Part shown: piece after piece, positions 1 to 64,000 of the stretch | How the letters are laid out: every line of letters starts with the position of its first letter | Position numbering within the stretch: the stretch's first letter is position 1 | Assembly (NCBI GenBank): GCA_010093605.1 | Contig: MU004182.1 | Location: 2,775,195-2,839,194 of the forward strand | Origin: Lophium mytilinum | Lineage: Eukaryota | DNA: 64,000 bases | Reading direction: 5' to 3' | Translations under genes and position numbers: made by a program | Notes under the pieces: model-generated | Told to the model about the DNA's origin: nothing | Database searches by the model: none | The model's input: the letters and a program-made list of their open reading frames with translations, nothing else

Positions 1-91
1 TACATTGTTTACAGATCAAATATCTTATATCAACCTTCTTTTGCCTATATTTCCCCAGATACAAACCTCTTACACACTTCGTAGTCACAGA

Positions 92-1018
92 ATGTCATTT
101 ACACGGGATGAAAGCCCCCCATTCGTTTCCCTTGCAACTCTTAAATCCGAGTTCAAGACTTATCAAAAGAATTGGCGATGCTCGACTTTCTCCACTCAGC
201 TCCGCTCTCTCCTGATATCCCGCCTCGAGGAATGGAACATCGACCAAGCGATTGTCATTGGCCTCGGTTGTGTTGACATGATACCCACTTACAGTCACCT
301 CAAGGGCACGGAAGAGGACTACAACGAGTGGCGTAAGAAGATCCTCTGCCAAGTGATGGTCTTCGTCGAAGTTGTTAACATCCTATCTAGGGCACAAAAT
401 GGCCGTCCAATTACGATGTTCGCCAGCGACCCTACATTCGATGATCTCGACGAGTTTTATCTCGCTCGGTTGAACATCACCGTCATTGAAAAGGCAGAGG
501 AGCGTGTTACCCCCACCACATTCGTTTTCAGCCCGTTCGCCCCGTGGCCTGTAGCCCTCGACGCTGTGCGCCGCTCACCGGAGCTCTATCTAGGTACCAG
601 CTGGACTAGGGTCTTGGAGGCAAGACCGCCACGATCACGTCGGCGTAGAAAGAGGCGGCATCGAGACTGCTATATGAACGATGAGCAACGTGCTGACTGT
701 CATAGATACTTAGAGAGCCGTATAGAGAACACATTTCCCGGCCTCGAAACCTACCAGCACCCATCGGTACATATGACACCTCCGAAGGAGCTCTTAGAGA
801 AGAGTGCTGAGCTGGCGAATCTAACTGGGCGCGGACTTGCTGGGCTCTTCCAGTTTCTCTGGCCGAAGCCGAAGCCCTTCCAGGAGGAAGATGATTCAGA
901 CTCCCAGGAGGGAGAGAAATCAAACTCCCAAGAGGAAGAGCAATCAGACTCCCAAGAGGAAGAGCAATCAGACTTCCAGGAGGAAAAGGAATTCGACTCT
1001 CAGGCGAGTCAAACATAA
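92..1018 (+). CDS. SRR1-like domain protein with an acidic repetitive C-terminal tail
   Basis: Motifs IVIGLG, ILCQ..VF, ASDPTFDDLD..YL..L.ITV and TFVFSPFAP resemble fungal SRR1-domain proteins. ATG at 92 is preferred over ATG at 5. Confidence 0.6.
   Translation: MSFTRDESPPFVSLATLKSEFKTYQKNWRCSTFSTQLRSLLISRLEEWNIDQAIVIGLGCVDMIPTYSHLKGTEEDYNEWRKKILCQVMVFVEVVNILSRAQNGRPITMFASDPTFDDLDEFYLARLNITVIEKAEERVTPTTFVFSPFAPWPVALDAVRRSPELYLGTSWTRVLEARPPRSRRRRKRRHRDCYMNDEQRADCHRYLESRIENTFPGLETYQHPSVHMTPPKELLEKSAELANLTGRGLAGLFQFLWPKPKPFQEEDDSDSQEGEKSNSQEEEQSDSQEEEQSDFQEEKEFDSQASQT
878..1004 (+). repeat. 24-bp coding tandem repeat, about 5 copies (SQEEEQSD-like)
   Basis: Units ttccaggaggaagatgattcagac / tcccaggagggagagaaatcaaac / tcccaagaggaagagcaatcagac x2 / ttccaggaggaaaaggaattcgac. 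Confidence 0.9.
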
Positions 1019-21962: not shown

Positions 21963-22799
21963 GGAGAAAGCTCGGTCGAGGAAGCTGGAGGAATCTTGGA
22001 GTTTGTAACACCGATTCTTAGCATATAGAATATCGTGATGAAAAGCAAGAAAAAGTTCTGAATTGGCGACACTCTACGTGCGAGAAGAGAATAAATGAGA
22101 AATATGATGAGAGTAGGATACGTTTCATTCCTGCGAAGTTGTGAGGGGTAACCGAGACATAGTGGCACGCCTGTCTTTATATATAGCCAGAACGCTCCGG
22201 AGCCACACCACGTAATAAGGTAGTCCCATAATAAAACACCGATTCCATGTACAGTCACGGAGCCTGCCATAGTTTGCCGCTCCCTAGAAATGACTTTGAA
22301 ACAGCAGATGAATGTACTAGTGATATGATGAAAGACGAGGTTGGCCTGAGAGAAAGCGGGTCACGGGACATCAGGGTCTAGAATATGCAGGTGCCTTGAT
22401 CTCCTCAGGCATCTTGGCGAGACCGTTAGAGGCGCAGTGGGCAGTGCGGGTTCTAGGCGGTCGTCGGGTGGCTGGAGGAAAATTCGGGATGGAGAGGAGA
22501 CGTGAGAGGGCGCGGGGTGGGCGGTGTAGAGGCTGATGACATGAGAGATTTCGCTGTCGTCGCTGGGGAATGCAGGATGACGTCTCTCACCTGACCCGCC
22601 AGCACAGCAGCCAGCAGCTTCGGCTTCAGCTATTAAACACCATCACACGGTCATCCACCGCAAGCCACCACGCCCTCATCACCAGGTCCTATTTCATGAA
22701 TAAAATCTTAGGTGCAATACACCCTCTACAACAACATTCTCGAAGCTAGTACAACATCTCCACATCCAGCAAAGATCAGCACACACTTCCACCCCTACG

Positions 22800-23933
22800 A
22801 TGCCACGACCTCGAAAATACTACGACGACGACGAGAGCGACGACGATGGCTACGCGCCCCCTCCAAGAAAGTATCGCCCCGAGAATGAGCCCCGACAGCC
22901 CGACCGACGTTCAAGGGGAGATCGAAACCCGTATGAAGACGACGATCGCATTCCCCCTCCCCCTGTGACCCCGAATCCACCCCGCCAGTACCCTCCAGTT
23001 GCCGATCCTCCAGAAGCTGTCGACGACGAGCGCCCTTCTGGTCGACATCAACCCAGAGCCCGGCGAGCGAAAAGCCCCCCGCAGGACGATGGCAGGCCGC
23101 CAAGAGAGACTCGAGACCCATATGGGGTAGACGAAGGAGAAATACGCAAGATACCAAGGAGCGGGAAGGCAGCAGCGGCAAAGGGCCCCTCTGGGGCGGA
23201 TGATGATGACCGCGATCCAGCACCACGACGCCGGAGACGTGGTGACGATGACCTGGATCGTGAATCTAAGGGCATGGCATTGCCGGTGAGGAGCAAGACT
23301 CGCGACAACTCTCCCGCCAGGGATGATAGGCCCCGGAGACGACCACAAAGCTACGCTCTACCTGATCCATACGACTCCCGAGGCGCCCCACGGGAACGCC
23401 GACAGCCCTCGCGTCGATACGACGATGAGGACGACCGCGAGCCTCCACGCCGCAGAGACCGCGAGAGGTCCGGCTACAAATCAGACGGCCCGGACCCCCG
23501 CCGACGCCGCAGCCGCTACGACGAGGATGACTACGAAGATGATCGCAACCCCCCTCCGCGACGACGAGACGACGGATACCGCTCTGATCGTGCTCGCCGC
23601 GACGCACCTCCGCCGAAACCTCGATATGACGACTACTACTCTGACCATCGCGACGATCGAGGTGCCCGGCGGGGAGGTCGGGACAGATACGCAGACGAAC
23701 GAGACCGTCGAGACCGCTATGAACGAGACCCCAGAGACCGCTATGATCGAGACCCTAGGGACGACAGATATGGAGCCAGGGACACTCCGCGGAGCAAGAA
23801 GGAGGCCGCTGATTGGCAGAGGCAAGCCAAGACTATGTTCATGAAGCATGGCTTGCCCGTGATAAAGAAGGAGGGTGGCCGACTGCTCCAGAAGGAGATG
23901 GCTAAGTTTTTGGCAGGTCAAGCCGGGCGATAG
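22800..23933 (+). CDS. Low-complexity Arg/Asp/Pro-rich hypothetical protein
   Basis: 377-aa ORF with RDRYDRDP repeats and a short predicted helical C-terminus, preceded by a C/A-rich leader. Confidence 0.7.
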   Translation: MPRPRKYYDDDESDDDGYAPPPRKYRPENEPRQPDRRSRGDRNPYEDDDRIPPPPVTPNPPRQYPPVADPPEAVDDERPSGRHQPRARRAKSPPQDDGRPPRETRDPYGVDEGEIRKIPRSGKAAAAKGPSGADDDDRDPAPRRRRRGDDDLDRESKGMALPVRSKTRDNSPARDDRPRRRPQSYALPDPYDSRGAPRERRQPSRRYDDEDDREPPRRRDRERSGYKSDGPDPRRRRSRYDEDDYEDDRNPPPRRRDDGYRSDRARRDAPPPKPRYDDYYSDHRDDRGARRGGRDRYADERDRRDRYERDPRDRYDRDPRDDRYGARDTPRSKKEAADWQRQAKTMFMKHGLPVIKKEGGRLLQKEMAKFLAGQAGR

Positions 23934-24125
23934 TTGCGTCGCGTGAGAGCAGATACAGGTGCAGTCACCCCATATACGACTTCATGAGGAAATTGGCTAC
24001 ATTGCAAATACTTGTAAGAATGTTTGGCGTTTTCAGCGGATCCATTAACTAGAATGTCTATCAGTTACACCTCTCTACCGTCGTCTCCCTCGTGCATTAG
24101 TCTCCCGTCTTTCTTTGAATCTCTA

Positions 24126-25903
24126 TCAAGCAGCGTCAGTCATCCTTTTCTCCTTCTCTTTCTCCTTCAAGTCTTCCATACCATACTCAGTATCCAAATC
24201 TTTCCTCAACTCCACGCTCTCCTCCAAAAATGTGAGCAGAAATGCTATTCCAGTAAATGCGATCCCCACTTGCCAAGTTCTCTTCAGACTCTCCACGAAG
24301 ACTCCCACAACCTGTTGCCGCGCCCCACTTTCCACACTAAGTGACTTGACAAAGTCGCGTGTCGCATGCTCATAAGCATGCCCATCTGCCAACATCGCCC
24401 TGACACCCAAGTCTTCAATCTTGCCAACTAACTCTGCAAGACGACTGTTAAAGACGGCGGCTGGAATCGCACTCCCCCACACTAGTCCGAAAGAACGCAC
24501 AAAGCCGAACGTTGCTGTCGACTTCGCGGTATCCGCATCGGTGAGCTTTGCCTGTATCGCTGGTAGCAACACGCCGACAACAAGCCCAGCGCCCATAGAT
24601 TCCACAGCTTGATAGACCACCCACTCTGCAGTCGACGACTTCTCGTCCAGTAGCGTATACAGCCCGAAGCCCAGCACCATAATCCCGTACCCAATAACGT
24701 GCATCGGCTTGTACTTCCCGAACTTACTCAATAGCCCACCTCCGGCGGCAGCAAATGGGATCATCACCAACACCGTCGGCAGCAACTGCACCCCCGACCG
24801 ACCGGGGCTGGACATCAGCACACCCTGGAAGTATACTGGGAGAAAATACAGCACATAAACTGTCAGCAGCCCATGGAAGAACGTCAGCAAAAACGCAACC
24901 AAGCTCGTCCGGTTTGCAAACAGATGCAGCGGCATCGTCGGCTCAACAGGGTATCCCGAGCCCTCGTACCACAAAAACGCGCCAAAACCCGCGAACCCCA
25001 GAACCAGCGGCAGGATAATGCGAAACGACGACCACGGATACACCGCATCCGCCCACCCCAGCGCCAACAACGCCGAGACACAGGACGCGATGAAGATCAC
25101 ATTCCCCAGTATATCCAGCCTTGCCATCTTCTCGGCAAACCCCCGCCCCGCCTGCCCCTCGCCGGCCTTCACTTTGAGGAACAGCGCGAGTAGCACAAAC
25201 GCGACCCCCCCGACGGGCAGGTTGAGGTAAAACACCCACCGCCACGTGGAGTACTGCACGATCAACCCCGCGAAGACGGGGCCCAGCGCGGTGCCGATGG
25301 TGATCATTCCGAAGATGAGGGCCATAAACTTGCCGCGCTCGCGCAGCGGGATGATGTCGCAGATGACGGTTTCGATCAGCACGTTGACGCCGCCCGCGCC
25401 GAGGCCTTGGATGGCGCGCCCGGCGATCAGCATGGTTATCGAAGAGGCGCCGCCGCACAGGCCGGAGCCGAGGACGAAGATCAAGACCGAGGCGAGGAGG
25501 GGGTGTCGGCGACCGTAGATAGTGGAGAGCGAGCCGACGAGGGGTTGGGGTGCGGTGCTAAGAGGTGTCAGAAAGGGGGGAGGGGAGCGAGTGGGGGTGG
25601 GGATGGGTACACGGTGAGGAAGTAGGCGAGGCTGATCCAAACGTAGTTGGAGGTACCGCCTAGGTCGGCGATGATGGAGGGGAGAGCGGTCGAGACGACG
25701 GTGGCTTCGAGGGAGACGAGGAGGCCGGTTAAGGCGATAGAGAGGAGGAGGGTGTAAAATTTGAGGCCGCGCTCCTGAGGTATGAAGGGCGAGGCGGTGG
25801 TTGAAGGGGCTACTGGAGTATTTGGTTGGTTGGGGACAAAAGTCGAGTTCTCCACCCCCTTCGCGGGGAGAGCGGCGGCTGTCGAGTCGAAGGATGAGGT
25901 CAT
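24126..25903 (-). CDS. MFS drug/H+ antiporter (DHA2, 14-TMS), one intron
   Basis: LEATVVSTALPSI, YGRR motif A, GRAIQGLGAGG, WRWVFYLNLP. Confidence 0.93.
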
Positions 25904-26048
25904 TGCGAGAATATATTCAGATGCTTGATGTGATATAGGTAAAAGAGTGACTCTATGAAACTATTGGGAAAGGAATGCTGGTAGGAGAGAGATGTGGCGA
26001 TTGGTGAGCTAGAAGGAGGCTTTGGCCACGGTGTATATGGAGGGCATG

Positions 26049-47302: not shown

Positions 47303-49215
47303 CTACTTCCTCTTAATGATTGCATCCGCGATTTTCTCGGCCAGCATGTACACAGTACTCTGTGGATGCCCTGGCACCATAAACGGAAATGCACTCGCGT
47401 CTACAACCCGAAGCCCATCTACCCCGAACACCTTTGCCTTGGAATCCACAACAGCGTTCTTATCCCCTTTCTTTCCCATCGAACAAGTCGCACCCGCATG
47501 CCAGATCTGGGTCGCGGCATTCTTCACGAACGCGAGTATCTGTGCATCCGTCTTGACTGCGTCCCCAGGCGCAACCTCGGGCCCAACTTTGATGCTTGAT
47601 ATGCCGTTGAAGGCTTGTCGTGCCCGCTTCAATCCAGCCACAGCAACCTCGCCGTCTGCGGGGTTTGTAAACCACCCTAGATCAATGACTGGAGGTATCG
47701 CCGAGTCGGCGCTTTGGATGGTGACGCTTCCACGAGACAATGGCGCCGTGAGACAGGCACTCAAGACACCCAACGTGCTTCCATTCGGGCCTGCAGCCGC
47801 ACCAGCAACATACTCGACTTCCGGCCAATCAGCTGGAAACCAGTCAAGAGCGACTTTGGTGGCGCTGGAGAAAGTCTTGCGGAGCGTGCTGGGAATTTTC
47901 TCGAAGGAGATGTAGGCTGAGATTGAGCTCAGCGGACCCCACTGCTGCTCATAGTACTGCTTGTTGGCCTTTTCTGGGTCGAGGGCTATCTCTTGACCTC
48001 CGGAGGGCGTGCTGACGACGTTGATGATTTGGAAGTAGAGCTGGTCCCATAAATTCTGACCGACGCCGGCAAGGTTCGAGATGACGGGGATATTGTACTT
48101 GCTCAGTGTTGCTGCAGGACCGATTCCAGATACCAATAGGAGATGCGGAGAACCGAAGACACCGGCTGAGAGTATGACCTCCCTCTTAGCAGTGAGAATG
48201 TACGACTTTTCATTGGCAGTGACCTGGACACCCTTTGCACGTTTGGAGCTGAAGAGGATCCTCGTCGCGCGTGTGTGGTGGTAGACCTGCAAGCCGGCTG
48301 GCACCCCAATCTGCTCCATGTAGCTGGTTCGCGACGATGATCGAGTCGCGTCGCACGGGTCGACCGACGTGGTGACGTACGCGCTGGTGCCAGTCAGGAG
48401 TCCACTGTTCAGGCCAAGTACACTCTGGGGCAGGCCGAGAGATCGGATGCCCTTAGCGAGCCAAGTGATGGTTGGATCAACCCATTGCGCCCACGAAACC
48501 TGGACTGGGCCTTTGAGAGAATCACTGAAGGCTGTGGGGTCGTAGATGAAAGTAGCGTTTGGTGTATTGCGTTTGGGGAAGTTAGGAGGATAAGAGAATG
48601 CCGATCTTTTGAAGAAAGGGAGGATGTTCCAGTACGTGTAGGAAGGATCGCCCACTACATCTGCCCATTTTTGATACGCTCCATACGTTGCGCGATGGAA
48701 GGCCAAAGTATTGATCGCAGATGAACCTCCGAGAGTCTTGCCTTGCGCGTAGTGGATTTGGCGACCTCCAGCCGCTTTTTGAGGGACCGAGACATAGTCC
48801 CAATCCATCAATGAGTTTCGAGGGTAAGAGGGAGTCGTGTCGAGGAACGGCATCGCCGTCGCGTAACCCGGCACTGTGCTGAGATTGCCATTGTCCTGCT
48901 CGTAGAAGCCACCAGCCTCAATCACGGCCACGGAGGCAACTTGAGCTAGACGAGAGGCTATGGCTAGGCCAGCAGTACCGCCTCCAATGACTACAGTCAT
49001 GGTATTAGTCAAGCAGGCTCAATCGACAAAAGGGACGACTGGAAAACAGGATGGCTCATACCAACATAGTCGTAAGTACCGGCTTGTCCAAAGGCTGGCT
49101 GCGCGAGAGCCTCGCCGATGACGAGCTGCAAGAACAGCAGTGCCGCAGCCACTTGTCCCCCCGAACGCTGTGCAGCCGTCACGATGCCCGCATATATTGG
49201 CCCCGAAAAACGCAT
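47303..49215 (-). CDS. GMC oxidoreductase (AA3), probably secreted, one intron
   Basis: Hydrophobic leader, YDYV(V)IGGGTAG, GKTLGGSSA, ILSAGVFGSP, IWHAGATC, PGHPQST. Confidence 0.93.
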
Positions 49216-50299
49216 TGCTTTCTCGATCGCCCGACGACGAATTGGCGGAAAATCGGGTAAAGAGGTAAGAAAAGCGCCAGCCAGGTGCTAAGAAATGAGG
49301 GCCGAGGACACAGCTCGAGCGATGGTACTCGGTACCTGCATACCAGCAATCAAACCCATCACGTGAAGAAGGAAGCGCAAGGTTGCGTAGGAGTGCAGGA
49401 GTGGCGTCCCTGCGATGCCGGACGAGATGAAGATAGTCTAGCGTGCTTGGTTTGCTGTTGGAATGGTGAAGGGACGGCACGGGGCGAGCTCTCCTTGCAA
49501 CCCGACACCCCGATGTTCTAGGGCTCTGCGGGTGAACCAAGTCCGTGGATCTGCGTGGGCATATCCCCTGTTAAACTCGGCACGGCATAGCAGCTACCTC
49601 CTCGGTCTTCCCGACGTCGAAAATCCTAACTAGGCATTATTCTCCTGTAAATTTATGCCCCGTCTTCTAGCTATACTATAGTAAGGTAGATAAGTAGTAA
49701 TATAGTAGTAGAAGATAGAATAGTTATAAAAGTAAAAATTATATTTACTAAAAGAAAGAAAAAGTAGAAAAGAATAGCCTTAATTATAGAGTACTACTAA
49801 ATATATACTCTATATTTACTTAGTATATACTTTTTTTCTACTCTATATATACTCTTTTTATATCTAATCTTCTAATTAGTTTAAAGAGCTTAAAGAAAGC
49901 TCTAGTACTTAATTCTTATATATATCTATATAAAATAAGAAGGCTATATAGCCTTACTATTTTATTATATATTTTTACTATTTTTATAAAGCTATATATA
50001 TAGGCTAGCTATATATAAGGCCTTATATAAGGCTATATATAAGGCTATAGTTATAATAAGGCTATATAGTATATCTATTTTACTATATATACTTTCTATT
50101 TTCTATATATATAGGCTATTATATTACTATATATATATCTATATATCTAAAAGTATACTAAAATAGTTAAATTCTTATCTTATTATAGCCTCTCTATATT
50201 AAACCTAGCCCCCCTATATTACTACTACGCCTTCTTAGCTATTTTAATCTATTAACCCCTCTATATACTAATTATATAATACTATCTAATATTAAAGCT

Positions 50300-52080
50300 C
50301 TTTAATAGAAAGTAGTATAGATACTATCTAAGGCTAAAAAGTTAACTAAGGCTAAGAAGCTAGCTAAGGCTTAGAATAAGCGCTATTATAATACTGCGTA
50401 GCCCCTTTCTCTAGTACTATCTTCTTTTTAAATACTTTATTCTTTATACTAGGTAGCTAGCTATACTTTTTAAATATAGTAGTAGATATAGTAGTAGATA
50501 TAGGTATAAATATAGTAGTAGAAAGAGGCCTAGATATTACTATATAGTTAAACTTAGGTAGATTAGTAAGTAAATTATTAAATTCTATAATAGCTAGTAT
50601 AGTAGCTAACTAAGAAGTACTCTAAGTAATAGAAGCTAGATAGGGGGCTATAAAAATAGGCGGTTCTAGTAGTAGAACTATTAGCGTATATTCTATAGAT
50701 ATATTTATAGGTCTAGCTACTATATCTATATTTATAGTAATTTTAAATCTTAATAGCTTTTACTATATATTATTATATATATAATAGCCTCTCCTTATAA
50801 TAGTAGGCTAGCCGCGCTAGTACTTAATAATAGTAGAATTCTCTATATCCTTAAAAGGCCTAAAAGAAATAGCTAGCTAATATTCTTCTAGCTAAATAAA
50901 CTACTAATAGTAATCTATTTCTTCTAGTTATATATAGAGCACTAGATCTAGCTAATTTATAAGCGCTTAGTATAGAGAATTATATAGTTTATATATATAT
51001 AGAATACTATAGATAGACTTAAATATTTAAGTATAATTAAGTAGGTTATATTTATTTAATTTAGCCTTTTAGAGCTACTTCTTAAGAAGAATAAGCGCCT
51101 ATAATATTACCTTTTAATATAGGTTATAGAATTTAGGTTCTTTAATATTATATAGAGTATAGGTATAATATCTAGCTATTTTATCTCTAAACTTAGACCT
51201 AGAGTTAAGAATAAGATTCTATATATTAAGAAGAATATTAAATAGATAGCTAGTTAATATTTAAAGAAAGCTCTTAAGTAGGCTATATAAGCCCTTATTT
51301 TATAATATAACTCTATAAGAAATTAAATTAGTATAATATATCTCTACTACTTTTTTATTTCTTAGTTATTCTTTAAGCTATACTCTTATTCTCTTTAGTA
51401 CTACTTATTTAGTATATAAGTAGACCCTATATAAAGTTTAGGCATTTAATTTAAATATTTTAGTATTAAGAAAAATTACTTATATAGTACTAAAGTACTA
51501 TACCTTATAAATATAGTAGGTAGCCTAATTCTATCTATATAGCTACTACTTATTCTCTATATATATTACTAGATTAGGGCGCTTTTTATAGTTATTAAGT
51601 AGCTTTTTCTAAGCCTTATTAAATTAAGCTATAACTTCTAGCTTTATTATAGTAGTCTAATAGGTAAGAAACTACTCTTTTTTCTTCTATTTCTTCTTCT
51701 AAATAGCTTTCTTCTCTTTATTTAATATAGGTATAGGTAGCGCGCTATCTATAGTATATATAGGTTCCTCCTTATATATTTTAGCTAGTTTAGTAATAAT
51801 ATTTTTTTTAATATACTATATATAGAAAAGGCGTGTAACTATAAGCTATTATTAATATAGTATATTTTTTAGAGCTTATTTTTTATCTATTAAGAAAATA
51901 TATAGAATAAGAGAATAGTGCTTAAAGAGCTTAAAGAGCTATAGTACTACATAGTTATAGTTTATCTTCTTCTCTTTTAGTAGAAAATAATAGGTAATTT
52001 TAAAGTTATTACTAGTATATATAACGCTAGTAATATATAAAAAGAGTATACTAAATTATTAGGGCTTAAGGTTAGAACGT
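50300..52080 (-). mobile_element. RIP-inactivated Mutator-like (MULE) transposase relic, 5' truncated
   Basis: Minus strand reads IDKK*ALKNIL...RLFYI*YIKKN (about TDKEQALKNAL...LFCIWHIKKN), NKGLYSLLK (about EGSHSLLK), and decayed GIPCxH-like and RGRP motifs. Confidence 0.7.
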
Positions 52081-52086
52081 TAGAAT

Positions 52087-52256
52087 TGTTAGATTAAATA
52101 GTATTAATATTAACAAAAGATAAATATAAGAGAGGAAGAGGTTTCTAGGATAAATATTATAATAACCTAAAGGGCGGAGTAATATTTACCCGTTCTATAG
52201 AGCCTCTATTACGTAACCTCTAGTTACGTGTTATGCGTAATTATATGGCTATAATA
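52087..52256 (-). repeat. Putative 3' LTR (~170 bp) with an adjacent polypurine tract
   Basis: Bounded by TGTTAG...ATAATA (RIP of TAACA). Followed on the plus strand by cgtctcccccctct, which is the PPT on the minus strand. Confidence 0.7.
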
Positions 52257-52472
52257 CGTCTCCCCCCTCTAAAGAAGCCCCCTAATTAAAGCTTTTATAA
52301 GAGAGAGTCCTTTCTATACTAGAGTATCTATACCCGCTTAAATATCTATTAAATAAAGTGCCGATTTATGCTTTAGCCGTAAGTAAATAAAGAAAATAAA
52401 TTAATTTATAGAGGATTACTTATCCTTTCTATTTTAGTGCAGCCTACTATAGCCTTACTATTTTAGTGCAGT

Positions 52473-52535
52473 AGTATTACTATGCGTAGTATTACTATGC
52501 GCAGTATTACTATACATAGTATTACTATGCGCAGT
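52473..52535. repeat. 15-bp tandem repeat, about 4 copies, in the gypsy 3' region
   Basis: agtattactat(g/a)c(g/a)(t/c) units. Confidence 0.8.
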
Positions 52536-55500
52536 CTTATAAAGAGTAGCCTTATTTATTTAAACTAGGGCCGGCTATAATAGAGCTATAAGAAGCTATA
52601 TAGCCTTTATAGCTACTATTCTACTACTAGGTACTTATAATAATCTATACTATTATATTATATAATTATTGCGCACGTCCGCAGTTAGGCCTCCTTAATA
52701 AATTAATTTAACCGCCGGTCTAGTAATTAAATTATATAGCTTTTGCAGTATTAGTTATATAGAGGTTTATAGCGGCAAGAATAGTAGCTAAGGTCGGCTT
52801 CTAGTCTAATAGTGGTCTAAATAAGGAATAAGGGCCTAGTTTCTTTAGGTATTAGTAGTGGAAGTCTACTATAAGGTATAGATAACTATTAGCGCAATTA
52901 TAGTTATTCTATTAGGGTTTATTATTCTATCTAATAAACTTAATCTTATATTATAGCATGCCTCTCTTACTAGTACTTAGATTAAGGCGTCTTCTATCTA
53001 GGCGGGAATTAATAACTTTCTTAGCGTCGCCTTTCTAGTATATAGGCGTAGTTTAAATAGATAGAGGCTTAGGATTATATTATCCTTTTATAGGAATAGC
53101 GTTAGCTAGGTAAAGAAGCTAAGAATAGAATACTAGGTATAAATTCTCTATACCTTTAGGTAAGTTAAGCTTATAGGTACTACTATTTTTATAGCTCTTA
53201 AGGATTCTAAAGGGGCCTAGCTTTTTAAAGTTAAGTTTCTTATTTAGGCGGTTTATTTTAATAAACCGTCTATTAAGTATAACTTAATTACCTAGATAAT
53301 ATATATAAGCTAGGCGTTGTCCTGCATTAGTATATTTCTTTTACTTAGCCTAGGCCCATTTAATTTCTATATAGAGGAACGCGCGTAACTTATCTATTTT
53401 ATTAATAAATTTATCCGCAAGTTTTATAAGATAAACTATTAGTGCGTTTACGTTTATATTTATATTTACGTCCTTAGATAATCGCGCGGCTAGCGCGGTG
53501 CCTATACTAGAAATATAGCCCTTAGTAGCTATAAAGGGCGCCACTCTAGTAGAGGCGTTCTTAGATAAGTTAGCCTTAAATTTAGCAACCGCGAGGAAGT
53601 TAACCTAGTTATTTTGCTAGTAGTTAATATACGCTTAAAGGTACTACTTTAGGCCTATATTAGTAATTTCCATTTAACTATCTATTTCTAGATAAAAGAT
53701 AGTAGAAAGTTTTAGTTTTATTCTAATATATTTATATAGGTAAGACTAGAAAGTTAAGATAAATTATAATTCTTAGTTAGAAATAATAGACTATAGGTAT
53801 TCTTTAGTGCACTATATCTATTTAAGGAAGGCTTAGGCTACTTTCTTAGCGTCTATTATTACTATTAGAATAAACTTACGCATCTTAGAAAGCCTATTAA
53901 CAACTACTATAATATATTAATAGTCTTGTCTAAATTATATATAGATTAGTAGGAGTCTAATAAAATTAACTATAAGATTAGTCTAATACCGTTTAGAAAT
54001 TAAAAGCAGCTTAAGAAAGCCTTATTTTACTTTACGCGCGTGCTTAATCTAATTACATAGCTAATAGGCTTTAATGTAATAATTAATATTAGATATTATT
54101 TATAGCTAAAAGTAGTATATTAAAATATAGTTATAAGTAGATATAGTTCTACTGTAGCCGACTAGCGGAGGTTTATATAGATTTTTAATAATAGCTAATT
54201 AGAGTTCCTCTTTAGTAGGAATATATAATTAGTTCTTTTAAATAAAAATAAGGCTGTTATAGATTATATAGTTATAGAGTTTAAGCTTAACGCCGTAATT
54301 TTTAACTATATTAGTAGGCAGGCGGCGTAGCTTAGCTCTAATAGCGTCTTTAATAGTGTTAGTAATAGTATTATTAATAAGGGCCTCTTATATGTAATCT
54401 ATAATATCTTACTCTATAGCACTATTAGTAGGGCTATTCTTTAACTCCCCCTATCTATTTAGTAACTTCTATAGTTTATTATTAAGGTTACTCTAAGACT
54501 CCCCTTAATTAAGTTCTACTTTACTAAGGTTATATATTATTGCTGCAAGGGAGACTATATTATAAGTTACGCCGTTAGTTATAATATAAGCTAGTTTAAT
54601 AGCGTAATGTATTTCTAGTTTAAGATTATAGTCTTTTAAGATAGTCTATTACTAAACCTTATAGCGCTTATTATTTTTATCTAGTATATTACCTAGGCGC
54701 CTAGTTAGTAAATTAGCCTTACTATTATCCTTACCTAGCCTATATATAATCCGGAAGTTAAATTTAAAGAGAAATTTAGCCTATCTAGCTTATTATTAGT
54801 TAAGCTGCTTAGTCTCTATAAAGTATTATAGGGTCTAGTAATCTAAAAGAACTTTAATAGAATTACTATACCTATAGCTAGTAAGTTCTATACGCTATTT
54901 CTTAAAGGCGCATATAATTGCTAGAAGTTCTTTATTATAGATTTAATAGTTAAGCTAGGCTGCGCTTATCTAATAAGATATAAAGGTAACTAGATAGAGG
55001 ACGCCGTCTTATATTTAGGATAGTATAGTAGCTATAATAGTATTAGATATATTATATTCTACCCACGTCTCTAGGTCTAGATTAAAGTAGGCTATCTAAG
55101 GAGCGTTAATAAACGCTTATTTTATTTATTTAAAGGAGAAGTCCTTTAAGCTACCTTCTTACTATAGAAAGGTAAACTACTTATAGACCTCTACCCTAGT
55201 AAGTCTTATAAGGGGTCCTGCGATATTAGAGTAGGCAATAATAAATTACTAGTAGAAGTTATAGAAGCCTAGAAAAGCTTATATATTACAGAGGTTCCGT
55301 AGTTATAGCTAGTTAATAACTATATTAACCTTAGCTAGATCTATTTTAAGGCTATTAACGCTAATAATAATGCCTAGATACTTAACCTCTTATTTATAGA
55401 ATTTATATTTAGTAATATTAAGGAATAGGCCTACCTTATAGAGTTACTAGAGGACCTTCTTAATGTGGCCTACGTGCTCCTCTAATGTCTCGCTAAAAAT

Positions 55501-58500
55501 AAGAATATTATTAAGATAAGCTGTATAGAAATTATCTAAGTATTCTAAGAGGATATTATTAATAAAGGCTTAAAACGTTGCTAGGGCATTATATAAGCTA
55601 AAGGGTAGGATAGTAAACTTAAATAGGCTGTATCTTATAAGAAACGCTGTGTACTTTTTATTGCCTTCTTATATTCTAATAGTGTTAAAAGTAGTAATAA
55701 TATTAAACTTTATATAGTATTAAGCATACTTTAGAAGTGTAAGAGTATTCTTTATAGCGGGAGGTATATTACGGGCTTTAATAGTAACTATATTAAGTCT
55801 ATAGTAGTTAATATAGATGTGGAGGCCTCCCCTAGGTTTATAAATAATAATAACTAGAGCAGTATACTAACTATTACTTTTTTTAATATAGCCTTTACTA
55901 TATATTTTATTAATAAATATTTTAATAACTAGTATCTTATCCTATAAGAGTCTATAAACTTTACGCGCTAGTACCTTTATCCCGGGTTTAATATTAATAT
56001 AGTAGTTAATATTAGTATTATCTTTTACTTTATAACGCAGTAGTAGCTTATTAGCTTCTTTTAGGTTCTATATATTAAGGAAGCCGTAATATTCTATAGG
56101 TACTAATGCTTTAAGTTTATTGCGGGTTATTAGTTTACGCTCTATCTTCTTAAAGAACTTCCGTTAGTTATCTTTTAATATAGTGTAGAGACTAATAGCT
56201 GCTAGGTTATTAGTAAAATTAGCTAAACCTAAGATAATATTACTAGATTTATACAGGCGTCTATTAGCGCGCGCTTAAGCTTTAGCTTTCTTATTAGTAA
56301 GTATAAGCTTAAAGTGTTTAGGCTATATATAGATAGTATCTTTCTCTAGTAACTACTAGAAGTTATATAAATACTCTTTACTAGATACTATATTAATATT
56401 AAGTACTTTAAAAGCAGTAAGCTAAGCATTAAGTTTCTACTTAAATAGGCGCTTGCTAGTGCGGGTAACAGGGTCTTTAAACTAGATATAGACTAGTTTA
56501 TAATTAACTAGATATTAAGAATAGTAGTAGTTTAAATCTAGCTGCATTATTTAGGTGCTAAACTTTATATAGGCGTCGTGTATTATAAGCTAGCCTATGC
56601 CTAAAATAATATTATAGCCCTTAAGGTTGTAGATTAGAGCCTAGAACTTATTATAGTGGCCTTTAATCTATATAGTAACTTTAGCTGCTTTATTAATAAC
56701 TAACGTAGAACTATTTAGTAGTTTAATATTATATAGAGTAGCTTTATAGATATTAAGCTTATACTATTTTATAAAGCTTATAGAAATAAATATAAAGCCG
56801 CTATATCTAGAATCTATAAAAATAGTTAATTTAACTATTCTAGTTAAAGTAATAATCTTATAGTTAAAGTCTATTTATTTACTAGAGAGAGAAGTAAGAC
56901 TAATAGCGCATGTAGATAGCTTAATATTAGGTGGTTTTAGAGGAGGTAGCTTAAGTTCTTAAATGCGTATAAGAACTTAAGCTAGCGTATCTTCTAACTA
57001 TCTCTAACAACAACTTTTATTAGAGATTACGCGTTTTCTAACTTATTAAAATAGATAGCTTTATTATTATCTTAGTCTTAGTTATACTTATATTTATACT
57101 TATACTAGCACTCCTAATTACTACTATAGTTAAATGCATTAAGTTTAATACTATTAATGCTAGCGGTAGTAAGGCGCTTATTACGCTAAGCCTCTAATAT
57201 AGTCTTTCTAGCTATAGCGCATTTAGAGTTGCTAGCATAGTAGTTCTTCTTAAAGTAGCTAAAGTAATATTCTTTCTTACTAAGATGTAAGCAAATATAT
57301 AGTAGGACGCTTAGTAATAAGACTATAGTAGTCTTTTTAACTATAATACAGTTATTAGTCTTAGTAATAGACTACTCTTATTAGACGCAGTTTAAATTAT
57401 AATAGCTGTTCTACGCATATACATTATTAAGGCGGCGTGCTAAAATCTATGCAGTAAGAAGTTTTTTATTAGCTTATTTTTCGCGTTAAATATAATAATA
57501 GTCCTTATATAGAATATTATCTTTTATCTAGTACTAGGTTAATAATCTAAAGTTAATATATTTAGCGAAATCTATGCGTAGTGTTTTCTTAAGGTAATAG
57601 TATTAAGTTGCAAGGCTGTTATTAATTTTACTGTACTTAAGCCCGTTAAGAACTATATTAAGGCGTTATAGAAAGTTAGATATCTTTTTATTATATTACT
57701 ATTTTATGCCCTTACTATTAAGCTAGTTAAGAAGGTAATTATAATAAACTACGTTACTCTTTTAGAATATAGCGTCTAGGTCTTAGATAAGTTCCTTAAG
57801 TAATTAGTACGGGTTAGTAGATATAAGAAAACTATAGTCTTCTATAACCTTATATGCACGCCCCTTATAGTAGCTAACAGCAAGCTAAATTTAGGTTATA
57901 GTTATAGGGTAAGTCTATTAGTCTACTTAGACTAAGTAGATTAGGTAGTTCTTCTATACTATATATACTATAGCCCCTAATTTAAAATTCTATAGGTATA
58001 TATACTTAGGGCGAGGGCCTTATTATTATCTATATTAAGGATAGATAGGTCTAAATACCTATAGCTAAGTAAAACCGCCTAGTTAGCTTAGGTTTAGGTT
58101 ATCTCTACCTCTACCTCCTATATTAGTAAAGTATTAGCCTAGAATGCAATTATATTAGAAGTTATCTAGGTTAATAGTATATAGTCCTACTAGTGGCAAA
58201 GAAGAGGCATTATTAGTAGAGTTATAATTAGTAGGCTATTTATTAGGTTATTCTACTAATATCTTCTACTAGAGTTAAGCTTTAAGCTAGGTAATTTATA
58301 TTAAGGCTTATTAGTATTTAGCTTCTAGATTATTAAGCTAGAGGGTTTAGGCTTAGAAGTTAGCGTGCTTTTTATTATATAGATAACGGACGCGGGCTAA
58401 CTCTATTTATTTAGACTTAAGTTTATAGTTAAGAGTATAGACTTATATCTAGAGCTTAGTAAGTTTACTATTAGTAAGTAAATATTTCTTATTTAGCTCT

Positions 58501-59877
58501 TTAACGGTAGTATTAGCTATATCCTATTCTTAGGTGGCGATATTTATCCTATACTTATAGTTATTACTATCTTAGTAAGCTAGTATAATGCAGTTCTACT
58601 ATTATTCTAGTATAAGTTAAATGTCTTTAATAAGGTCTTATAGACCTTATAGTTTATATTATTAGTAGACGCCTTCTCTATAGCGCATCTTAAAGATAGA
58701 GCCGTTAGCGCGCTATATAATTATAAGATATAACCGCTAATAGTTCTCTACGCATATTATAGTATAGTGCCTACTACTCTATTCTATGCCCGCTACTTAC
58801 TAGGCTAGGTTAGAAGTATTAAGTCTAGTAATAGATTTAATATAGGTAGATTAGTATTATAATAGAGATATATTAGGTAAGGAAATACTATAAATAGGTA
58901 GTATTCTTAGATATTTAGAGTTGCGGGACTAATATAGCTTAGAAACGGTATTATAGTACGCCGTGGCGTTAGAAGTATTAATAGTAACGCCTTAGTAAGC
59001 GGTTTTAAGCTTATTAACTTTATTATCCGCGTTATTACTAAACTAATATTCCTTCTCTTAACGGTCGTGTTTATCGGCTAAATTAAAGTTAGAGGAGGAG
59101 TCCTTATTATAAGTAGTAGTTATATTATTAAGGCCGGCAGTTATATTATTAAGGCCTGCTATTATATTCTTAAGTTCTTTAGATAAATTAAAGTTGCCTA
59201 GTATATAGCTACTAACGCAGGAAAGCGGAAGTATAGTCTTCTCTATAGTTAGAGAAGCTAGACTAACTAGTAGAGGCTTGCCTATAGTACTAAACTTATT
59301 CTAATAATATTAGAGGTTAGCTAGTATTACTAGAGGGACTAGTCTAATAGATAGAGCTAATTAAGAAGTAGTAGCTAATATCTGCGACTAGAATTAAGTT
59401 ACTTAAAAGGGTAGATTTGCTAGCTAAATAAAAGAAGGCTGCAGGCCGTAATTAATCTATATTATATTATTATTATTATCTTCTATAAGAAGGTGCTATA
59501 GGTTTAGGGCGCCTTCTTAATATAATATAATGCGGCGGGGGTTAATAGAAATACTATTAGCGTTACTAAATAGGCGTCTAGTAGTAGAGCGTCTACTAGA
59601 GACAGAGTTACTAAACTATAGAGCTTTAGCGCGGTTAAAAGTATAGCGGTTAGGGTTAGCTATATAAAAAGGTAGAAAAAGTTAATATAGAAGAAAGAAA
59701 ACTTAAAGAGGCGAGGTATTAAATTTATGTGCAAGAACCTATTAAATTTAGATTATTTACTACGCGCTCTTAAAGGCGTAGAAGGTTTAAGAGGGTAGTA
59801 CTAGTAGCACTAGTTACGCCTAGCTGCGGAACTGCCTAGGGGGTTATAGTAAATAATAAGTTTAGTATTTATAAGGT

Positions 59878-60118
59878 ATAGGTAGTATATAGAAAATAGG
59901 TAGTATATAGAAAATAGGTAGTATATAGAAAATAGGTAGTATATAGGTACTTATTCTATAATACTAGGTATATACTTAGGCTTACTATTATTAATACTAA
60001 GCTTTCCGGGCGTTAGTCTCTATATAGTAATAGTAATTAATTAGTAACGCTAGGCGCGCGCACACGCTATTATTAATACTAAGCTTTCCGGGCATTAGTC
60101 TCTATATAGTAATAGTAA
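59878..60118. repeat. 18-bp tandem repeat (ataggtagtatatagaaa, about 3.5 copies) and a 52-bp direct repeat (59985 and 60067)
   Basis: ctattattaatactaagctttccgggc(g/a)ttagtctctatatagtaatagtaa occurs twice. Confidence 0.85.
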
Positions 60119-60349
60119 AGTAGATAGAAGAAAAAGTTATAGAGCTATTAAAGTAATAGATAAGAATTTATAAGGACTTTCTAGGGTACTACTACTACCC
60201 CTCTATTATAGGGGCTTATTATAAGCGCTGCTATAGTTATAAGGTCTACTATCTAGCTTTATATATAATAGCTGGATTACTTTATTAGGGGCCCGCGGCG
60301 CTGCTAATGGGTATACACAATACTACTGCCACTAGTAATAATACTATTA

Positions 60350-61500
60350 ATGGTAGTAATACTAGTAGTAATAGAAATAATAGAATTTAATAGTAATTAC
60401 TAGCTAATATTAAATATACTAATAAAACTAAGCTATACTAAGCTAAAACTAGTAAAATTAGCTTATTTTATATAGCTACTAGCTTAGTAATATATATAAA
60501 TAGTAGAAAAGTTAATAGTAATAATAAGCTAATACTAAGCTTACTAATAAAACTATACTATAATAAGTAACTACTAGTAGTAATACTTAGAAAAAGAAAA
60601 AGATTAACTAGTAGTAATACTAGTAGTAATAGAAAAGTAAATAGTAGTAATAGAAAAGTAAATAGTAGTAATAGAAAAGTAAATAGTAGTAATAGAAATA
60701 ATAAGATTTAATAGTAATAAGAAGTTATTATTAAGTATACTAATAAACCTAGGCTATATTAAGTTATAACTACTAGAAATAGTTTATTTTATATAGCTAC
60801 TAGCATAGTAATAGTACTAAATAATAATAAAAGTACTTAGTAGTAGAAAAATTAAACGGTAGTAATAGAAATACTAGGATATAATAATAATTACTAGCTA
60901 ATATTATATATACTAGTAAAACTAAGCTATAATAAGTAGTAACTAGTATAATAAGCTTATAATATATAGATACTAGCTTAGTAATATACCTAAATAGTAA
61001 AAAAAGTACTAAATAATAGAAAAAGTAACTAGTAGTAATACTGGTAGTAATAGATATAATAAGATATACTTACTAATACTAACTATTACTAAGCTTACTA
61101 GTAGTACTAAGCCATAATAAGTTATAACTAGTAGATTTATCTTATAATATATAGCTACTAGCCTAATAATAATACTAAATAGTAATAAAATAGAAAATAG
61201 TAGTAAAAGTAACTAGTAGTAATAGAAATAATAAGATATACTTATAAATACTAACTAATACTAAGTCTAATAGTAAGACTAATCTATAGAAAGTAATAAA
61301 TAGTAGAGTTTAGCTATAATATATAGCTATTTACTTAGTAGTAATACTTAATATAAATAGAAGTAAAAGTAACTAGTAGTAATATAAATAATAAAATATA
61401 CTTATACTATATACCTAATACTAAGTCTACTAGTAATACTTACCTATACTAAGTAGTAGTAGAATAATTTTATAATATAAAGCTAGTAGTAAGAAATAAT
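60350..61500. repeat. Degenerate ~160-190-bp tandem array, about 6 units, with an internal 21-bp repeat
   Basis: The anchor agtagtaatagaaataata...tatatagctactagc recurs near 60365, 60685, 60860, 61045, 61216 and 61376. agtagtaatagaaaagtaaat is repeated at about 60622-60690. Confidence 0.75.
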
Positions 61501-61865
61501 AATAAAATATAGATATATAATATAAATAACTACTTAGTAATAATATTAGTCTATATTTTAACTATTAATAGCTTATATCTTATTAATTAGCGCCTCTAAG
61601 TAAAATATATATACTAGATATAAAGTTAATAGTACTCTAAACTCTAAAAATATATAGTTAGTAGTTAGTAAATAGAAATAGAATATATAAGTATAATAGC
61701 TTAAATTAAAAATCTATTTAAACTATATACTAGTTTTTTTTTCTTTCTTATAAAAACTTCTAGAAAAGTACTCTCTAACGCCTTAATAGTAATATAACCC
61801 TAAACTAAACCTTTAACTATATAGAATAAACTCTAATACTAAGTAGTTTTTAGAACTACTATATA

Positions 61866-64000
61866 TTAAACCTTTATCTTACTATAAATATAGTCTAGAT
61901 TTAATTCTAGTATTAAATCTAAGCCTCTAATATAAGAAGTATCTTCTTTAATAGTAAAGATAGTTCTAGTAAAGTCTTCTACTAAGTAGTAAGTATCTTT
62001 ATTACCTTCTAATAACTTAAAGCTATATAAATCTCTACCTTCTAGATTTCTAGCTAAATAAGTAGCTAATAGAATAATATCTTTATATATGCATATAATA
62101 GGCTCTATTCTATTAGCTAGGCATACTTCTAAAGGTAGGAAGCATTCTAAGCAGGTATTAGTATTATTTAATAAGCCTAAGTTAGATATTTCTTCTTTAA
62201 TAGGTAGAATAGCTTTAAATATTAGTTTACTTTTAGAATTAGGGCAGTTATATATACTATGCCATTTATAATTACTATCTCTATTATTAAAGCAGTAAAA
62301 GCAGATTTCTTTTAAAGTATCTAGCCGTTCTAATATACTAATAATATAGCTATTATCTTCTTCTTTTTCTAGTTCTTCTAAGAATAAAAGCTTAGAACTA
62401 GACTTAGATTTAGTAGTAATATTCTCTTCTTCTTCTCTTTCTATATCTTCTAGAAAGCCTAGCTTTTTAGTAGGGCTAGTTAAAGTAGTACTAGTATTTT
62501 TTTTAGCTTTAGTATTAATAGAAAGCTTACTAGAATAAGTATTAGGTACTCTACTAGTATTAGATAAGATAAACTCTTTATCTTTTCTAATAATACTACT
62601 AGGATAAGTATTAGGTACTATACTACTACTAGGTAATATAGTATCTTTATTTCTTTTAGTAATACTAGAAGAATAAGTATTAGATACTCTAGTAGAAGTA
62701 GGGCTATTACTAGGTAATATAGGTAGATTATTACTAGAAGTAGAAGAAGAGTTATTAGAACTTATTTCTATATACTTTTTATCTTTACTTTTAAGTATAT
62801 TTCTAGTAGTTCTACTAATAGATATATTATTACTAGAAGAAGAATCTTTTCTAGCTTTATCTTTAGATTTACTTTTCTTTTTTAAACTAGTAGGTATATT
62901 AATACTAGTATTATTAGAAGAACTATCTTCTATTTCTATATTTTTAAGCTTAGCTTTCTTAGTTATAGTAGAACTAGTAGGATTATTTATACTAGATTTC
63001 TGCCGTCTATGCTTTCTACTAGAGCTACTAGCTATAGAATTAGTATTTTTATCTACTAGCTTAATAGGAGCTAAACTAGAAATAAAAGTAATATTAAAAG
63101 GGTTACCTTCTAGCTCTATTAGATTAAAGTAAGTTAAAAATCTAATACTAGCTAAAAAGAACTCTTCTTCTAAAGGCTTAGTAGTATTTCTAGCTAAGCT
63201 AAAAGGGCGGCCGTAGTTTCTATTACTAGTAATAGTATTTCTATTAGCTTATATATCTTCTATAGTAATAGTATCTTTAAAAGTATCTTTATTAATAGTT
63301 TTAGTACCTATTTTATACTTTAAAATATAATCTATTAACTGCCTATAGTTACTAATATTAATTCCTACTTTAAAGAAGTTCTTAGTTTCTTTAACTAGTA
63401 GATTAGAGATAGAACTAGATTTAATAATACTATTATTATACTCTAGTAAATAAGGACTAATAGTAGTAATTCCTAAGGCTTTAATAGATAGAAAGTTATA
63501 AAAAGGTAGTACTACTAGTAGATATAGCTTAAGTATATTACTTAGCTTAGGCCCGAAGTATCTAGTACTTTTAGAACCTATATTAGTAGTATTTTGCATT
63601 TTATGCCACCTACTATTAAGTCTTATTAATCCTAATCTAGGTTCTATAGTTAAGTCTCTTAAACCGGTTTCTATAGTATTTTTATAAGTAATTAATACTA
63701 CTTCTTCTCCTCTTAAAGGGGAACCGCTAGTTAAATAAATAGCTAGTGCTAAATACTCTATAAATCTTTTTCTAGCTTTTAGAAAAGTAGTAGTATTTTT
63801 AGTATTAAAAGTATACTCTAAAGTAGAACTTATATCTTTAATATACTTCTTACTAAAAAAAGTTTCTCTATCTAGTACTTTATCTTCTAAAAGAGTAGTA
63901 TATTTACTTAGATTATAATAAGAGCTAGTTTCTATATAGTCTATAAAGTAATAGTCTTTTTTACTTTCTAAAGGTATATCTTTAAGAGAGTTAAAATCTA
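61866..64000 (-). mobile_element. Tyrosine-recombinase-like gene (telomere-linked helicase/DUF3505-associated type) with a C-terminal Cys/His domain; 5' end outside the window; one stop at 63249-63251
   Basis: LAIYLTSGSPLRGEEV, RWHK, RYFGP..LYLLVVLPF, NYRQL, EDI*ANR...NYGR; then an S/T/K-rich linker; then CFYC..WH...NC and CLECFLP..C...CIYKDII. Confidence 0.7.

Follow-up and report, generated by a model that had tools for sequence, protein, structure and literature searches.

A relative of the telomere-linked helicases without a helicase core in Lophium mytilinum, and a predicted tyrosine recombinase/topoisomerase IB-like fold for its TLH domain

The domain that characterizes the telomere-linked helicases (TLH) was reportedly defined by Rehmeyer et al. 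in 2009. TLH proteins are named for Magnaporthe oryzae, Ustilago maydis, Schizosaccharomyces pombe (Tlh1/2), Metarhizium, Fusarium oxysporum and Botrytis cinerea in the accessible portions of the TLH literature, which also place the TLH domain in a choanoflagellate. According to the passages available from one preprint (bioRxiv 10.1101/2024.02.27.582403), the proteins are built from two C2H2 motifs, a 'TLH domain' of ~250 amino acids upstream of the helicase, and RecQ motifs, and their function is 'yet to be determined'. The corresponding passages of a Botrytis preprint (10.1101/2022.03.07.483234) give the same list of TLH domains and report 14 subtelomeric TLH copies for one strain, whereas two other strains had none. 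The TLH domain is presented as specific in this literature. Here we describe a gene at the end of a 64,000-nucleotide stretch of DNA from Lophium mytilinum (GenBank assembly GCA_010093605.1, contig MU004182.1, positions 2,775,195 to 2,839,194; hereafter the window). As judged from its homologous TLH domain, the stretch encodes a member of the TLH family. We consider it likely that it holds the 3' two thirds of a TLH gene that was inactivated by repeat-induced point mutation (RIP), belongs to a sub-lineage without the RecQ core, and carries a TLH domain that resembles recombinases and type IB topoisomerases.

On the minus strand, positions 63998..61869 form one reading frame of 710 codons that is open at the end of the window and contains a single in-frame TAA, at codon 250. 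Going by the length of its sister protein P0152 (see below), about 525 further codons should lie beyond position 64000. A preceding reading of the letters alone (the sequence-only reading) had recognized the frame correctly; its interval started at 61866, which belongs to the stop codon, and the gene runs from right to left. The motifs it quoted are all present in the order that it gave: LRGEE, WHK, YRQ, ANR directly after the stop and NYGR, corresponding to R96, K133, R219, R253 and Y262, followed by the Cys/His clusters C566/C569/H580/C585 and C616/C619/C626/C636. The 710-codon frame exceeds chance. It has a single stop where the five alternative frames over these 2130 nucleotides contain 25-165, and the remaining 11.9 kb of the AT-rich block in which the gene lies has on average 0.119 stops per codon, i.e. 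~84 per 710 codons. None of 500 shuffles that preserved the dinucleotides gave a best frame with fewer than 61 stops, the mean being 82. The longest other stop-to-stop open reading frame (ORF) in the AT-rich block measures at most 89 amino acids.

A phmmer search against 1.84 billion representative proteins retrieved 277 relatives at E<=1e-3, of which 63 remained at E<=1e-10 and 11 at E<=1e-30. The closest non-self matches reach E values down to 1e-44 with 31-51% identity. Residues 1-339, which make up the TLH domain, align upstream of the helicase in proteins of 1500-1900 amino acids (for example P0004, E 8e-43, and P0006, E 1e-41). The first ~300 residues encoded in the window correspond to approximately residues 550-900 of the long relatives, immediately before the helicase. 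Pfam scanning of 18 relatives detected DEAD and/or Helicase_C downstream of the matched region in 16 and an N-terminal OrsD domain (C2H2-type) in 11, and gave no match at E<=1 for either half of the window frame. Around the first conserved arginine the family consensus reads ..SGxPARGTEL.., and a C-terminal Cys/His domain is shared with 27 long relatives; the connection to fungal telomere-associated RecQ helicases, which the sequence-only reading had drawn, is correct on both counts. In a protein atlas only unnamed Ascomycota clusters were matched (score 0.95, with recognition below the guide value of the tool), and a homologue search at near lengths returned 3 proteins only. Pattern scans for related loci in metagenome contigs gave 362 pattern matches for P0152 and 216 for the window ORF, with no relative among them.

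The helicase itself is missing from the window frame. DEAD and Helicase_C were not found in either half by Pfam at the same threshold, a helicase hidden Markov model (HMM) built from 12 relatives did not match the window protein, and tblastn with 17 relatives uncovered no helicase relic anywhere in the 64 kb. The DEAH motif is absent from the window protein and from the homologs P0152 and P0005 and present in three helicase-bearing controls; inspection of the window frame by eye found no GK[ST]. A regular expression for the Walker A motif also missed the helicase-bearing controls and was discarded as a test. In 27 of the 30 proteins that possess both a TLH domain and the C-terminal domain, a helicase match lies between the two, and the gap measures 414-824 residues. 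The three helicase-less members are the window protein (gap 208), P0152 (gap 177) and P0005 (gap 79).

P0152 is an uninterrupted protein of 1173 amino acids, annotated as 'hypothetical protein' and encoded on a 4.5-kb contig of JGI source. It contains OrsD at residues 20-115, the TLH domain at 526-813 and the C-terminal domain at 997-1154, without a helicase, and is 47% identical to the window protein in the TLH domain and 33% in the C-terminal domain. P0005 is a 333-residue fragment in which the end of the TLH domain is joined to the C-terminal domain and the second Cys cluster is lost. In a FastTree phylogeny of 101 TLH domains (the 101 of 153 sequences whose HMM match spans at least 230 positions) the window protein and P0152 are sisters with support 0.978, inside a clade of ten members (support 0.941), among them the helicase-bearing P0004, P0006, P0007, P0008 and P0009. 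Because the same architecture is found in the intact ORF of P0152, the absence of the helicase is a feature of the lineage and neither an assembly nor an annotation artefact. On these alignments and this tree, the helicase-less form is a real, derived branch nested among helicase-bearing TLH proteins. The missing helicase core noted in the sequence-only reading is therefore confirmed by Pfam, the family HMM, the DEAH motif and tblastn, and is shared by the intact sister, but its suggestion that the locus represents a separate kind of element does not agree with the nested position of the branch.

Between the two conserved parts lies a low-complexity linker without helicase, as the sequence-only reading had described; it measures ~210-245 residues and is rich in S, T, K and N. 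Its residues 301-520 gave no protein match. The linker is far shorter in P0005 and P0152 than in the window protein. In two further relatives, P0017 (1526 amino acids) and P0043 (1298 amino acids), the TLH domain is followed by 350 or more residues that match neither the helicase nor the C-terminal domain; they may represent another helicase-less or very degraded form.

For the TLH domain, an AlphaFold2 model was made of window residues 1-330, with X at the stop and an alignment of 48 sequences (the window sequence and 47 matches of at most 700 amino acids that cover the domain, taken from 150). The model has a mean predicted local distance difference test score (pLDDT) of 81.7 and a predicted template modelling score of 0.79, and is weak at residues 231-270 and from 300 onward. 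In a VIA-align search of 48,161 PDB representative chains the top match was the archaeal XerA (4a8e_A, Z 10.1, root-mean-square deviation 3.3 Å, 152 aligned residues, model 77..294), followed by XerH (Z 8.6), XerD (Z 8.6 and 8.4), a staphylococcal integrase (8.0), an integron integrase (7.6), Cre (Z 7.4) and the SSV1 integrase (Z 6.6). Type IB topoisomerases of bacterial, Leishmania, variola and human origin scored Z 5.4-6.5, the bacterial enzyme having 6.5, and the matches further included Ndc10 (Z 5.3-5.6), a Zincore entry (Z 5.2), Flp, the P2 and HP1 integrases and the protelomerase TelA. All of rows 1-29 are recombinases, integrases, type IB topoisomerases, protelomerase or proteins that we take to share the recombinase fold, namely Ndc10, SroF, MrpR and the Zincore entry. 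Unrelated proteins begin with a potassium channel at Z 3.7. The first 21 rows of a Foldseek search are likewise all Xer, Cre or Tn1549 integrase, with probabilities up to 0.99. The sequence-only reading had proposed a tyrosine recombinase-like domain, to be examined with AlphaFold and Foldseek, and the outcome is consistent with this: a catalytic fold like that of tyrosine recombinases and type IB topoisomerases is predicted for the TLH domain.

The residues which the sequence-only reading had assigned to a recombinase catalytic set (R, K, R, H/R and Y) fall on the most conserved columns of the family, with 97-100% conservation for R96, K133, R219 and Y262 (conservation was counted over 113-146 aligned relatives, depending on the column; see the table for the individual counts). 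Also well kept are Glu99 (130/139 relatives) and Arg146 (141/144). The model places K133 in the turn that connects strand 124-131 with strand 142-147, and R219 at the start of helix 215-230. In tyrosine recombinases the hairpin lysine and Arg-II occupy the corresponding strand-turn and helix-start places. The arginine at position 253 has a parallel in archaeal SSV-type integrases, which also have Arg at the His/Trp-III position.

The C-terminal part of the protein consists of a domain with two Cys/His clusters, of the patterns CxxC-x10-H-x4-C and CxxCxLP..C..C. An iterated HMM of the C-terminal 150-160 residues matched 27 of 150 relatives. The domain invariably follows the helicase there and is duplicated in some cases; tandem copies were seen in the full-length TLH proteins P0004, P0008 and P0013. 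In an alignment of 28 sequences C566 and C585 are invariant and C569, H580, C616, C619, P622 and C626 are conserved to at least 90%. The model of the domain covers 207 residues, is mostly helical and has a pLDDT of 84.2, with values above 90 from its residue 45 onward. No structural counterpart of the C-terminal domain was found by VIA-align (best Z 3.0) or Foldseek (best E 1.2), which does not show that the fold is new. It is probably a family-specific zinc-type module for binding of DNA or a partner.

Positions 1-50000 of the window have ~50% GC and ordinary genes, and the window is ascomycete-type nuclear sequence. From ~50000 onward an AT-rich block extends to the end. Its GC content is 0.23-0.31 versus 0.48-0.57 in the rest of the window, TpA/ApT is 1.7-2.0 versus 0.5-1.1, and (CpA+TpG)/(ApC+GpT) is 0.04-0.28 versus 1.0-1.4. 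Low GC combined with a high first and a low second index are classical marks of RIP. The part of the block at 50001-61800 contains a Ty3/gypsy relic shattered by RIP, and since this relic adjoins the frame it serves as an internal control for RIP damage. A tandem array of ~6 diverged units of ~172-185 nt occupies 60340-61506, starting ~360 nt downstream of the stop of the gene, and a perfect 21-nt repeat (x3.7) is found at 60621-60698; tandem repeats near TLH genes are mentioned in the portions of the TLH literature at hand. In run X1 (see below) the contig depth is greater over 61500-61667 than over the TLH-like gene.

The frame itself is saturated with RIP. Its density of CpA+TpG, 8.5 per kb, lies within the 3-27 per kb of the rest of the block, whereas the GC-normal genes of the window have 135 per kb. 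Only 18 CpA/TpG are left in the 2130 nucleotides, and at these a RIP transition would change the residue in 12 cases, create a stop in 5 and be silent in 1. The 17 non-silent surviving targets comprise all seven Cys, two Trp, three His, one Met, three Gln and one Ala. Conversely, of the 440 TpA in the frame, 365 possible CpA/TpG precursors would have been silent, and none of these is left. Silent or tolerable targets are exhausted and targets in Cys, His, Trp, Met and Gln codons survive, a pattern that purifying selection during repeated RIP would leave. Intact relatives share this bias in their amino acid composition: H, Q, C, W and M together make up 2-3% of P0152, P0015, P0026, P0017 and P0007 versus 10-16% of the GC-normal P0025, P0042 and P0055.

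Sequencing runs provided close relatives of the window copy. Run X1 (organism A) contains a sequence that is 99% alike, with 12 differences in 1196 nt, and the air-metagenome runs X3 and X5 contain pieces that are 80-99% alike. No RNA run was listed as containing the stretch, and run X8, presumably RNA, gave no match to it; neither observation has a bearing on expression. At codons 249-250 the window has ATA TAA and X1 has ATG CAA, which corresponds to two RIP-type transitions in the window; the same X1 contig has TAA at codon 135, where the window has CAA. The X5 sequence, ~90% alike, has CAA at codon 250. Two near-identical copies carry different RIP-type nonsense codons, and therefore their common ancestor had an open frame. 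By this codon comparison, the window copy is dead and was recently inactivated by a RIP-type change of the conserved Gln250 codon to TAA. Between X5 and the window 11 synonymous and 8 non-synonymous changes were counted among the differences listed, which suggests constraint over the longer term; this tally, like the one for X1 given below, covers the best-supported differences, with 217 more beyond them. Segment 62617-62751 (135 nt) occurs in X1 in two variants, of which the first matches the window exactly and the second shows 7 differences from it. This hints at more than one copy or haplotype, although the contig depths give no copy number.

The features of the window are collected in the table. 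Outside the TLH-like gene, the GMC oxidoreductase ORF ends ~1 kb from the sharp GC-to-AT transition (49500-50100). The first 2 kb interval touching this border has a TpA/ApT of 1.08, and some RIP leakage may have occurred there. The stretch 22001-26000 is richer in GC (0.565) and has a strong AT skew (0.14-0.25).

Table. Positions of the TLH-like gene, its parts and other features in the window (residue numbers refer to the 710-codon frame).
Feature	Position	Strand	Evidence or conservation
TLH-family frame without helicase, 3' two thirds of gene	61869..63998	-	ORF + sister P0152
Terminal TAA of the 710-codon frame	61866..61868	-	
In-frame TAA, codon 250, family position usually Gln	63249..63251	-	Q in 79/115 relatives
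Catalytic-domain-like core of TLH domain, residues 74-298	63105..63779	-	AlphaFold2 model, structural matches
R96 in SGSPLRGEE, candidate first catalytic Arg	63711..63713	-	R in 136/139
K133 in RWHKMQ, candidate hairpin Lys	63600..63602	-	K in 146/146
R219 in NYRQ, candidate second catalytic Arg	63342..63344	-	R in 126/129
R253, candidate His/Trp-III position	63240..63242	-	H 91, R 18, Y 3, N 1 of 114
Y262 in NYGR, candidate nucleophile, nine residues after position 253	63213..63215	-	Y in 113/113
Low-complexity S/T/K/N linker, residues 299-545, where relatives have linker + RecQ core	62364..63104	-	
69-nt (23-aa) unit x ~3, in frame, '..PNTY(S/P)SS..', residues ~429-497	62507..62713	-	
C-terminal helical domain with two Cys/His clusters, residues 547-700	61899..62360	-	HMM, model
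RIP-type AT-rich block holding the gene	50001..64000	.	GC + dinucleotide indices
Tf2-1-like SH3 domain ORF, 54 aa, Ty3/gypsy	53122..53283	-	E 3.6e-8
GMC oxidoreductase ORF, 571 aa open, GMC_oxred_N/C	47306..49018	-	Pfam
MFS/TRI12-like transporter ORF	24129..25916	-	
409-aa ORF without Pfam match	22704..23930	+	

Intact relatives such as P0152 begin with a pair of C2H2 fingers (OrsD), continue with the TLH domain and end in the C-terminal two-zinc domain. If the TLH domain is indeed recombinase- or topoisomerase IB-like, it may cleave and rejoin DNA in such proteins by way of a phosphotyrosine link at Tyr262, with the C2H2 and C-terminal zinc modules supplying specificity for DNA or partners. 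This activity would let the gene, or a repeat unit carrying it, recombine between chromosome sites. On this interpretation the gene has evolved under repeated RIP, with selection presumably maintaining its open frame, and a RIP-type change of Gln250 to TAA has inactivated the window copy in the recent past.

Several results weigh against parts of this interpretation. The fold is assigned because of the predicted model and the residue pattern, and no sequence profile supports it: Pfam gave nothing for the TLH domain of the window and 27 relatives at E cut-offs of 1-5 (Phage_integrase included), PHROGs gave no integrase family for any of 48 members, and a profile search of PDB sequences returned no recombinase. 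The best matches in the latter search, penicillinase repressor (E 0.059) and Csy1 (E 0.83), were taken as noise. Of the structural matches, the Z of 10.1 is moderately above the 7-8 that is typical, according to the tool, of models without clear match, and the E values of Foldseek are weak (best 1.1e-2, none <=1e-3). Confidence in the model drops to a pLDDT of 50-58 at residues 231-270, a segment that includes both position 253 and Tyr262. Furthermore, the family does not conserve the histidine of the canonical HxxR, position 216 being variable; the set therefore looks more like the Arg-Lys-Arg-His-Tyr pentad of type IB topoisomerases. The pattern of RIP under selection comes from the window copy only, with the relatives contributing through their amino acid composition. 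X1 and the window differ by 8 synonymous and 16 non-synonymous changes among the differences listed, which is near neutral, with no visible constraint now. Finally, a telomere repeat (TTAGGG x3) does not occur within the 64-kb window.

Some of these points would also fit a TLH domain that retains the recombinase fold as a DNA-binding module only, like Ndc10 or the Crypton-derived DUF3504, the protein acting as a telomeric or subtelomeric factor without cleavage. Ndc10 and the Zincore entry are indeed among the structural matches, the HxxR histidine is not conserved and profiles of active recombinases do not match. Ndc10, however, is not known to retain the recombinase catalytic residues, whereas Arg96, Lys133, Arg219 and Tyr262 are kept throughout 113-146 diverse TLH relatives at the percentages given above and His/Arg253 stands at the canonical nine-residue distance from the tyrosine. 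Such a pattern is expected from selection for catalysis, and we hold a purely DNA-binding role to be unlikely. Rather unlikely as well is the idea, put forward in the sequence-only reading, that helicase-less copies constitute a distinct kind of autonomous mobile element, moved by the recombinase-like domain alone as in Cryptons. The architecture has persisted and diversified, as is evident from the intact P0152 and the diverged fragment P0005, the RIP signature implies past duplication, and X1 carries two variants of 62617-62751; but the helicase is absent from only three of the 30 two-domain proteins, and the branch is nested in helicase-bearing TLH proteins, so that a derivative formed by internal deletion fits equally well. 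A deletion derivative of this kind might need full-length copies in trans or ride along with subtelomeric duplications.

Two further explanations concern the sequence composition rather than the protein. It is very improbable that the frame is just a dead RIP relic whose openness has no meaning. Such a relic would account for the in-frame stop, for the position in a RIP block beside a dead retrotransposon and for the near-neutral differences from X1, but not for one stop in 710 codons where the shuffles gave at least 61 and the neighbouring block has 0.119 per codon. Nor does it account for the fact that 17 of the 18 RIP targets still present, the 7 Cys codons among them, are non-silent, or for relatives that have the same amino acid bias and are intact over 1173-1783 amino acids. 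We give equally little credence to an AT-rich composition that is native, from an AT-rich donor or an organelle plasmid, and owes nothing to RIP. Many relatives are rich in N, I, K, Y and F, as this would predict, but the depletion is specific for CpA/TpG (8.5 vs 135 per kb, index 0.1) with TpA/ApT at ~2. In addition, transitions prevail among the changes relative to X1 (of 36 places counted by kind, 10 are A>G, 10 T>C, 5 G>A and 3 C>T), and GC-normal family members exist.

The presence of TLH genes at the ends of fungal chromosomes has long been documented, and a recombinase-like fold, if the model holds, would give the TLH domain a concrete and testable biochemical role. If true, it would explain why TLH genes are multi-copy, strain-variable and linked to chromosome ends. 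The persistence of the recombinase-like and zinc domains without helicase in the helicase-less branch points to these as the core of the system, and the survival of the frame in saturated RIP DNA makes it a case for studying how a repeated gene stays open under genome defence. The more interesting result is the family-wide one, namely that the hallmark domain is predicted to be recombinase/topoisomerase-like and that members keep long open frames in RIP DNA. Only tentatively do we extend this to the proposition that the TLH domain is an active tyrosine recombinase/topoisomerase IB-like enzyme and that TLH genes, far from being ordinary host helicases, are widespread recombinase-helicase elements which break and rejoin DNA site-specifically and so copy themselves from one chromosome end to another. 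The helicase-less branch would then be a streamlined or parasitic form, and the family would persist in RIP-competent fungi because the purge of all dispensable RIP targets has left it nearly RIP-proof.

A search of the open literature, with subscription-only literature outside its reach, found no paper that joins telomere-linked helicases and tyrosine recombinases. The word 'recombinase' does not occur in the available passages of TLH papers, including 10.1101/2024.02.27.582403 and 10.1101/2022.03.07.483234. Word searches found no 'helicase' or 'RecQ' in the Crypton survey of Kojima and Jurka 2011 (PMC3212892) and no 'helicase' in PMC13465315. Searches of the literature on RIP-resistant genes and similar topics returned nothing relevant, and a Chlamydomonas genome paper and a screen for fungal co-option proved to have no bearing on the subject.

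Compared to the described TLH proteins, the window protein has a homologous TLH domain and the same C-terminal Cys/His domain, and its sister P0152 has the N-terminal C2H2 pair (OrsD) as well. It differs from them in lacking the RecQ helicase core and in a coding sequence that is heavily shaped by RIP.

With tyrosine recombinases of the Xer/Cre/lambda-integrase type and type IB topoisomerases the TLH domain shares the predicted fold and, for its candidate catalytic residues, the order Arg, hairpin Lys, Arg, His, Tyr and the His-to-Tyr spacing of 9. Unlike these enzymes it shows no similarity at the level of sequence profiles, the HxxR histidine is unconserved, and position 253 is Arg in the window protein and in 18 of 114 relatives. 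The TLH domain is, moreover, fused to zinc-finger, helicase and C-terminal zinc domains.

Cryptons and the captains of Starship elements are, like the TLH proteins, eukaryotic and largely fungal proteins on a tyrosine recombinase fold, which in case of the TLH domain is a predicted one. The Zincore entry among the structural matches presumably contains a Crypton-derived DUF3504 protein. The domain architecture of the window protein is different from that of both groups, and Pfam DUF3435 was not matched by the window protein, P0152 or the relatives scanned. By this Pfam test the window protein is not a Starship captain, and its tie to Cryptons would consist in the shared, predicted fold only.

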